DNA of 56,268 bases, counting the filler, from Squatina squatina (Eukaryota): the NCBI GenBank assembly GCA_031763465.1. It is 3 parts of 3 records of this genome, joined end to end, with 100 filler letters (N's around TTAATTAATTAA, not from the genome) between each part and the next. Parts side by side here need not be neighbours in the genome. Positions count along the whole stretch, not along the records: positions 32,099 to 56,268 come from JARFOE010000115.1; 2 more parts are not named here. One strand, 5' to 3'. Shown piece after piece: positions 33,575 through 34,334 of this stretch; position 1 is the first letter of the stretch; the number at the start of each line of letters is the position of its first letter. The position numbers and the translations under genes were made by a program. Under the pieces are notes generated by a model, which made no database searches, had not been told where the DNA came from, and saw only the letters and a program-made list of their open reading frames with translations.

Positions 33575-34334
33575 GGCCCTGAAATTGCGATGTCCCCGGG
33601 TGGGAACGATGTTCCCACGCATCCGGGGAGACATCGCAAAAGCCGGTTATGGGGCTGTCAATCATAACCCCGCATAACCGGCATTTGCTATCTGTCCAGA
33701 AACTTCTGGACAGATCCAACGCCGAGGCTGGGAAGCCCATCCCTAGCACAGAACTTTGCGATATTTTTGCAGTTTTCTGCTGGGGATCTCTTGAAATTTC
33801 TTACGCTTATTAAAACCAAGCATATCTGCTTGGTTTTAACATTGTAGGAAAAGTTTTTAAAAAAATGTAATTCAAAAATATTACTGGGATGTTGCTTTAA
33901 AACCATTCCCAGTAAGGTGTGTTTTTAAACATTACAAAGATTTTTTTTTTTAATTTAATTTTTTTGTTATTTTTCTCCTTTTATTAAATTTTAATGTTAA
34001 ATTGGTTTTTAAAATGTTTTGTGATGTGTTTGTGTTTTTCATCTTTCAGTGACGTTTTGACAGTTCTTGATAGATCGCTGAGAACTGTCAAAACTTCATT
34101 GAAAGATACACCTACCTGATTGGCTGGGGCCTCCCAGGTGACCTCTCCAGCCTCTTCAGTTTGACTTGCCCGGGACCGAAGGCAGCCCCGCTCCGAATCT
34201 CCAACTCGGGGTGGGGGGGGGCGCGCAGAAAATTGCAAACTCCCGTGGATCCAGGACCCTTAGGTGAGTACGTTATTTTTTTTGCGATTGGAGGCATCCA
34301 CACGCAGGAAGCCTCCAATCGCAATTTTAGGTCC
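33575..34334 (+). mobile_element. Non-autonomous TIR element (Harbinger-like MITE) made of serial hairpins, copy A
   Basis: TIRs GGCCCTGAAATTGCGAT / ATCGCAATTTTAGGTCC (15/17); flanks cat/aat; at least 7 internal inverted repeats. Confidence 0.75.

Follow-up and report, generated by a model that had tools for sequence, protein, structure and literature searches.

A family of non-autonomous TIR elements in Squatina squatina built as a chain of hairpins whose stems covary between subfamilies and decay in inserted copies

Organization of the locus

The window, by which we mean the whole stretch of 56,268 nucleotides that was analyzed, is a pack of three stretches, and all three copies of the element described here (A, B and C) lie within the third of them (positions 32099-56268). 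Copy A is bounded by TIRs that comprise 17 bp within the element and 18 nt at 89% identity when one base of the flanking triplet is included at each end; in the subfamily A consensus the TIR is perfect over 18 nt. Copies B and C are, judged by their sequence, members of sister subfamilies to A. Because both are truncated by assembly gaps, neither displays a second end or a target duplication, and copy B is also missing about 40 bp near its left end. The coordinates of all these features are collected in Table 1.

The interior of copy A is a chain of eight stems, each of which was found at, or within a few bases of, the position given to it in the original prediction, which had been made from this DNA alone. 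Stems 1 and 2 overlap and compete with each other, the five-base loop of stem 4 (TATTT) is identical in subfamilies A, B, C and D1/D2 despite the covariation of the stem that carries it, and a mismatched intermediate state of stem 6 is fixed in subfamily A2. Copy A folds with z scores of -15.3 (DNA, + strand), -18.5 (RNA, + strand) and -11.8 (RNA, - strand), and 0 of 20 dinucleotide shuffles were as stable in each of the three folds; the control folds of 15 other N-free 500-nt stretches in the window gave z scores from -1.2 to +2.9.

The TIR elements found here are not all hairpin chains, since a separate 448-bp element at 50115-50562, with GGCC-type TIRs that match almost perfectly and the triplet ATA at each flank, folds no better than its shuffles (z -1.6). 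In addition, the stretch at 25236-25735 contains what looks like the TIR start of a further element and, behind it, a tandem repeat of short period at about 25600-25735; it shows no fold signal (z -0.1).

Table 1. Features of copies A, B and C in the window
Feature	Position	Strand	Remarks
Copy A	33575..34334	+	complete non-autonomous TIR element of ~760 bp; 90.6% to the subfamily A consensus
Copy A left TIR	33574..33591	+	outermost base (33574) closes the target triplet
Copy A right TIR	34318..34335	-	outermost base (34335) opens the target triplet
Copy A left flanking triplet CAT	33572..33574	+	family consensus ANT; unlike the right triplet
Copy A right flanking triplet AAT	34335..34337	+	
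Stem 1	33585..33639	.	13 nt, 92%; closed by an inverted TTGCG motif pair
Stem 2	33627..33697	.	28 nt, 82%; core ~33643-33684; covaries among A, B, C, D
Stem 3	33690..33715	.	12 bp perfect (100%); one pair C-G in A vs A-T in B
Stem 4	33739..33787	.	seen in folds; covaries between subfamilies
Stem 5	33798..33851	.	perfect core 33810-33839 (13 nt, 100%)
AT-rich central spacer	33860..34040	.	excluded from covariation counts
Stem 6	33881..33915	.	within AT-rich core; seen in folds
Stem 7	34041..34107	.	27 nt, 93%; the stem most strongly re-written among subfamilies
Stem 8, terminal hairpin	34282..34324	.	18 nt, 94%; overlaps right TIR
Copy B	50629..50927	+	left part of a subfamily-B element; cut by assembly gap (N from 50928)
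Copy C	55094..55333	-	left part of a subfamily-C element; cut by assembly gap (N up to 55093)

Subfamilies and abundance

We searched the element's own assembly (1.52 Gb in 1.15 million contigs) with copies A, B and C and with L094, a fourth type, as queries. These searches gave 8871, 4419, 2681 and 6295 first-look candidates, respectively, which are not copy numbers, and 40 candidates were scored for each query. Searching 197,972 non-N bases from 40 unselected 10-kb stretches gave 8 matches, covering 1.4% of the bases at a density of about 40 per Mb, which suggests a family of tens of thousands of copies. A tree and visual inspection were used to divide the scored copies into seven sets, A (27 copies), A2 (8), B (15), B2 (5), C (12), D1 (17) and D2 (13), with six divergent C-like copies and two intermediates (L207 and L058) excluded. 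The subfamily consensuses are colinear, 733-768 bp long and 52-95% identical to each other; divergence of copies from their own consensus is 7-9% in A, A2, B and B2 and about 15% in C and D. The longest ATG frame in a consensus has 42-103 codons, so the element is without coding capacity; with its TIRs, short length and high copy number, it has the properties by which MITEs are recognized. The genome-wide copies and the consensuses together bear out the earlier proposal of a TIR-bounded family with positionally homologous stems across its subfamilies. This family may already be catalogued by sequence in Repbase or Dfam.

Public runs from two related organisms contain the left flank of copy A and almost no subfamily-A sequence at 80% likeness; public run X1 contains subfamily-A sequence at high depth. 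Another TIR family was seen adjoining the hairpin elements or inserted inside them (L118 from position 421 onward, L073, L086 and L057). Two GGTAAG splice-donor-like motifs occur at consensus positions of about 340 and 690 (near 33916 and 34263 in the window), the same places in most subfamilies, and the consensus also contains, at about 560-585, what we take to be a CCAAT-like motif and an E-box-like motif.

Target site and flanks

The flanks of 124 left ends read A-n-A-Y-A-W-T and those of 69 right ends mirror this pattern. The left triplet has A in 98 of the 124, then A or T in 108 and then T in 103, which defines the target as ANT and not TWA. The element had been described as having GG-type ends with 3-bp target site duplications (TSDs), and this description is correct for the TIRs but not for a clean duplication: the two triplets are identical in 9 of 31 young complete copies, compared with 20% for unrelated flanks and with the roughly 66% that a true duplication of such age would give (p 3e-5 against), and copy A itself has CAT on one side and AAT on the other.

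A host repeat that is presumably LINE-like contains an insertion hotspot, at which several subfamilies have inserted independently and in both orientations (L002, L003, L008, L057, L172-L179, L200-L216 and L257-L269). The empty site contains a single AAT (387 matches); among the first 100 empty-site matches listed, none has C as the middle base and about 7 are without the three bases. Six complete insertions with both host flanks show a 3-bp gain, with a triplet on both sides, and the middle base is kept in three of them (L202, L207, L214) and changed in the other three (L211, L008, L260). In unbiased pattern searches the host-upstream triplet was non-host in 8 of 12 cases (ACT in 3, ATT in 4 and GTT in 1; a thirteenth match was not the host), and the host-downstream triplet was non-host in 0 of 6 (a seventh match fits a short host variant). 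The short host variant may account for some of the ATT cases but cannot account for those with ACT. By analogy, the mPing model of staggered TSD cleavage (available text of PMC4561436) would lead one to expect that a donor overhang is carried over. Error-prone gap filling is an alternative source of the mismatched triplets, and neither process accounts for their one-sidedness.

Within the PHIS group, the available text of PMC4482050 gives ANT as the target of Pangu and TWA as that of PIF/Harbinger, with those of ISL2EU and Spy differing from both. Our family has the ANT target and the 3-bp duplication relative to the empty site that are expected of the Pangu type, and does not have its faithful triplet duplication. 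PIF/Harbinger in the strict sense was rejected since the flanks are ANT and TWA duplication was not found. ISL2EU, with an AT duplication at A|AT|T, is ruled out by the 3-bp gain in the six complete insertions, and a Spy-like element, which makes no duplication at AAA|TTT, is ruled out by the same empty-site comparison.

The flanks of 6 of the 12 informative complete copies are discordant (L002, L003, L013, L018, L086 and L218), in that the host repeat ends at one junction and is not resumed at the other; L016 and L071 were set aside from this count as ambiguous. At copy A, the contig of a relative (run X5) matches the left flank to 33562 and then continues for about 4.2 kb with sequence foreign to 32600-43200, which may represent a deletion at the element, an insertion in the relative or a misjoin. 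Unrelated flanks may result from deletion or recombination at the elements. Of 6 copies chosen for being top matches to the element 5 were discordant, as was 1 of 6 chosen via a host junction (p 0.08), and this difference, together with the very fragmented assembly, makes misjoins an equally live cause. No reciprocal partner was found within 20-30 kb of two discordant copies (L002, L218) and two copies with the far end missing (L222, L179), where 33-56% of the sequence is N.

Covariation between subfamilies and decay in inserted copies

To score covariation, the consensuses were aligned by sequence only, helices of at least 8 pairs were taken from one consensus with the AT-rich core excluded, and the fate of each pair was scored in another consensus. 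As a null, the stem bases of the other consensus were permuted 5000 times among positions sharing the same reference base. Compensatory Watson-Crick pairs numbered 20 of 151 from A to B (null 2.8, maximum 9), 25 of 175 from D1 to B (null 5.4), 9 of 167 from D1 to C (null 1.4), 37 of 175 from D1 to A (null 10.6) and 3 of 152 from A to A2 (null 0.1), and there were none among 176 pairs from D1 to D2 (null 0.2). Each of these comparisons involves two consensuses, so that every change counts once, and the comparisons share branches. RNAalifold predicted 85 pairs from 17 real copies, 48 of them with two-sided change, and the compensated states can be read directly in individual copies, 15-27 per subfamily. 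The covariation that had been predicted between subfamilies is thus significant, with observed compensatory pairs far above the permutation null, and the three examples quoted for it from copies A, B and C are present in the sequence and upheld in the subfamily consensuses.

The inserted copies behave differently. Private compensatory changes and one-sided non-CpG changes number 3 and 290 in A copies (null for compensation 2.7), 1 and 89 in A2 copies (null 1.1) and 0 and 212 in B copies (null 3.5), for a total of 4 compensatory (null 7.3) vs 591 one-sided changes; the ratio of compensatory to one-sided changes is 4:591 in these copies and 20:27 between the A and B consensuses. The private mutation rate is 0.0259 in stems vs 0.0272 at base-matched unpaired sites in A, and 0.037 vs 0.042 in B. 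Over all seven groups there are 43 private compensations vs 33.2 expected, a number reached by 15 of 300 shuffles, and the excess comes mainly from old, heterogeneous groups. The near-absence of compensation in inserted copies indicates that the host is not preserving the folds and that resting copies are not repairing them. The view that structure rather than sequence is maintained therefore applies between the subfamily consensuses and fails for inserted copies, which decay neutrally.

The two strands are alike in the kinds of mismatch that they carry. The counts, which are small, are 6 G-T vs 8 A-C mismatches in four consensuses; for one-sided changes the corresponding numbers are 16 and 25 (p 0.21), and the G-U-compatible strand bias that had been put forward as a check is absent. 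Among surviving mismatches 54 of 96 (56%) are transversions, and wobble-type changes are not enriched. From the covariation between consensuses, its absence in copies and this strand symmetry, we infer that pairing is kept in DNA and in the mobilizing lineage only; the same observations disfavor an RNA fold or a host function. As a separate observation, transversions make up 56-61% of changes between consensuses vs 42-48% of private changes in copies, a difference that may stem from errors of alignment or from mutation proceeding differently in the mobile lineage.

Origin of the covarying stems

The explanation that we tentatively place first, without holding it to be established or even probable outright, is that this is a Harbinger-moved TIR family whose arms are kept paired between subfamilies, and not in inserted copies, through arm-to-arm copying during mobilization. 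A Harbinger DDE transposase and its Myb/SANT partner would move the element by binding to its TIRs and TTGCG repeats, and copy number would increase in part when the gap left by excision is filled by repair synthesis. Such repair exposes single strands that are prone to template switching; here the exposed strands would fold back and the polymerase would switch to the facing arm, so that a new mutation in one arm would now and then be copied to the other while the DNA is single-stranded. A mismatch may persist for some rounds and later be reverted or compensated. Resting copies skip the gap-repair and template-switch step and would for that reason decay.

Several results count for arm-to-arm copying. 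Divergence in stems is close to that in loops and linkers (0.24 vs 0.32 for A-B and 0.40 vs 0.43 for A-D1). An A-G mismatched state is present in all 8 of the A2 copies, which means that a mismatched intermediate was fixed in an amplifying sub-lineage and that pairing is not strictly required. In stem 7 of consensus C a single 1-nt gap is mirrored in both arms, although this is noisy in individual C copies. The types of substitution do not settle the matter either way: 26 of 54 compensations are of the transversion type, and two independent hits are rejected as their source on the spectrum of the copies (expected 0.16-0.28) but not on the transversion-richer spectrum between consensuses. Against copying, nothing in that process by itself calls for the observed conservation of stem positions and of total length (about 760 bp, 733-768) between consensuses that are 52-60% identical, and between D1 and C the stems diverge far more slowly than unpaired bases (0.13 vs 0.33), as purifying selection predicts. 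Template switching had been mentioned in the original prediction as a neutral alternative; it is excluded for resting chromosomal copies, where there is no compensation, and is kept for the mobilizing lineage, where our preference for it is narrow and copying and selection on the fold remain unseparated.

Selection on the fold is a serious possibility to which we give somewhat less weight. Under this explanation the DNA fold, as hairpins on either strand or as cruciforms, aids mobilization or copying of the element, elements whose stems are intact multiply more than others, and compensatory changes are selected in the mobile lineage. It agrees with the confinement of covariation to the amplifying lineage, with the retention of stem order, element length and one loop sequence across 52-60% identity and with the slow evolution of the D1-C stems; the mobility of mPing is also tuned by internal sequence, according to the available text of PMC9921582. 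It does not agree with the near-unpaired rates at which A-B and A-D1 stems diverge, with the amplification of mismatched intermediates or with the absence from A and B of a 25-bp stem present in C and D; folding is also weaker in the younger subfamilies (-179 to -189 kcal/mol) than in D1 (-233 kcal/mol). A more specific proposal, which we regard as unlikely, is that transposition acts on folded DNA with a selected hairpin chain as a structural component of the mobile intermediate, that insertion would resemble that of a substrate of site-specific recombination, and that a sticky 3-base end would be carried to a new ANT target, leaving one flank with the middle base of the donor and often causing deletions or rearrangements.

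We consider it improbable that the stems are by-products of inverted binding-site pairs for a Myb/SANT partner, co-evolved with that protein. Subfamilies A, A2, B and B2 do each contain 6-7 occurrences of the motif TTGCG, against about 1.5 expected and a number reached by 0 of 300 shuffles, and inverted pairs of it lie close to the ends, as subterminal binding sites would, and close stems 1 and 8; but it is not enriched in C (3 observed, 2.0 expected), and the compensated pairs lie in stem bodies of 20-30 bp that have no common motif and differ between subfamilies. The earlier suggestion of palindromic protein sites is consequently retained for the short TTGCG motif and given up for the stem bodies, which changed sequence.

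Action of the element through a structured RNA, either as a transposition intermediate or as a source of hairpin RNA, is very unlikely. The RNA folding is strong and the two splice-donor-like motifs hold their places in most subfamilies, but there is neither strand bias nor wobble enrichment, and TIRs with a short target duplication indicate a DNA transposon. An Rfam search gave five weak matches, all below the gathering score (best 33.4 of 60 bits). The folded RNA form that had been envisaged for the element is thus disfavored by strand symmetry, by the lack of wobble-type enrichment and by the lack of an Rfam match at threshold. Least credible of all, and already largely refuted, is an artefact of alignment or consensus building: energy minimization of a single consensus supplied the stem definitions, the consensuses had their CpG sites restored and the assembly is in many pieces, but the alignments used sequence only, the compensated states are visible in 15-27 copies per subfamily and 12 of the 20 A-B compensations are of the transversion type and so are not CpG decay.

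Relation to known elements

Pangu, as described in the available text of PMC4482050, resembles our family in its ANT target duplication and in the GG start of its TIRs, which here fall within the reported 11-40 bp. It was defined from transposase-bearing elements, whereas no autonomous partner was found here, and the part of the host list covered by that text contains no vertebrate. Our family differs from Pangu in its hairpin-chain body and in the frequent failure to duplicate the middle base of the target. The Tourist-like PIF/Harbinger element mPing (available text of PMC4561436 and PMC9921582) is likewise small, gene-less and bounded by TIRs, and its 3-bp target also leaves the middle base free but is TWA and not ANT; the available text of PMC9921582 makes no mention of hairpins or palindromes, and mismatched TSDs after insertion are not described in the available accounts. 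Harbinger-N12A_XT and Kolobok-N2_XT of Xenopus tropicalis (342 and 496 bp), which we compared by description only, are vertebrate MITEs with TIRs and with internal repeats called palindromic in the available text of PMC12676858. The same text contains no hairpin, compensatory or secondary-structure analysis of these MITEs; palindromic internal repeats are thus already known in a Harbinger element, Harbinger-N12A_XT, without an analysis of pairing. Animal Cryptons, including Eulor5/6, are also non-autonomous DNA elements of jawed vertebrates with no clean TSD, and in the available text of PMC3212892 and PMC5753468 they are reported to be without terminal repeats, in contrast to the TIRs and the 3-bp hotspot duplication found here. 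We rejected an animal Crypton on account of the TIRs. Searches of the open-licence literature gave no account of covarying hairpin chains in Harbinger MITEs.

Bacterial REPINs and PATE-type stem-loops, which are similar to our family as non-autonomous mobile DNA with a secondary structure that is kept, are moved by HUH (Y1) enzymes via single-stranded DNA and have no TIR/TSD architecture; nothing in the hairpin-chain family shows such an enzyme. Cut-and-paste MITEs are thought to require only their ends and some internal sites. In the present family, which makes up about 1.4% of the sampled DNA, base pairing over some 300 internal bases is kept only while the element is mobile. Either DNA folding belongs to Harbinger-type transposition, or enough DNA becomes single-stranded during mobilization for palindromes to be rewritten. 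That the target duplication is unfaithful is relevant to the cutting and joining of DNA by these transposases, and the strong covariation, found here with no sign of an RNA role, calls for caution in RNA discovery screens.

Mobilizing machinery

This genome is very rich in the Harbinger transposase domain DDE_Tnp_4, for which 32,675 first-look candidates gave 150 scored matches, and some of the transposase loci lie near GG..AATT ends preceded by ATT. At 40 transposase loci of this fragmented assembly there was no homology to the ends of the hairpin element, bar one separate MITE copy, and next to truncated copies we found no transposase-bearing element sharing the ends of the family. Since no locus joins a transposase to these ends, the Harbinger assignment is one that we infer, and mobilization by Harbinger-type transposases is plausible. 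This also applies to the PIF/Harbinger affinity proposed earlier, with the qualification that the ANT target fits Pangu and not the TWA of PIF/Harbinger.

The window itself contains the remnant of a Harbinger-type second gene (53383-54370, + strand). It starts near 53383 with GG-rich, TIR-like sequence, has a Myb/SANT domain (Pfam Myb_DNA-bind_5, E 3e-8) at 53710-53934 and probably includes a second exon from about 54223. A nine-base Myb-site motif that we take to be that of zebrafish Harbinger3_DR resembles sequence of subfamily C, and this lead was not used. The ends of two transposase-bearing elements (L154:6343-6461 and L161:271-394) have their own fold-back of about 120 bp, which contains an inward copy of the TIR and is built on GGCGC, not TTGCG.
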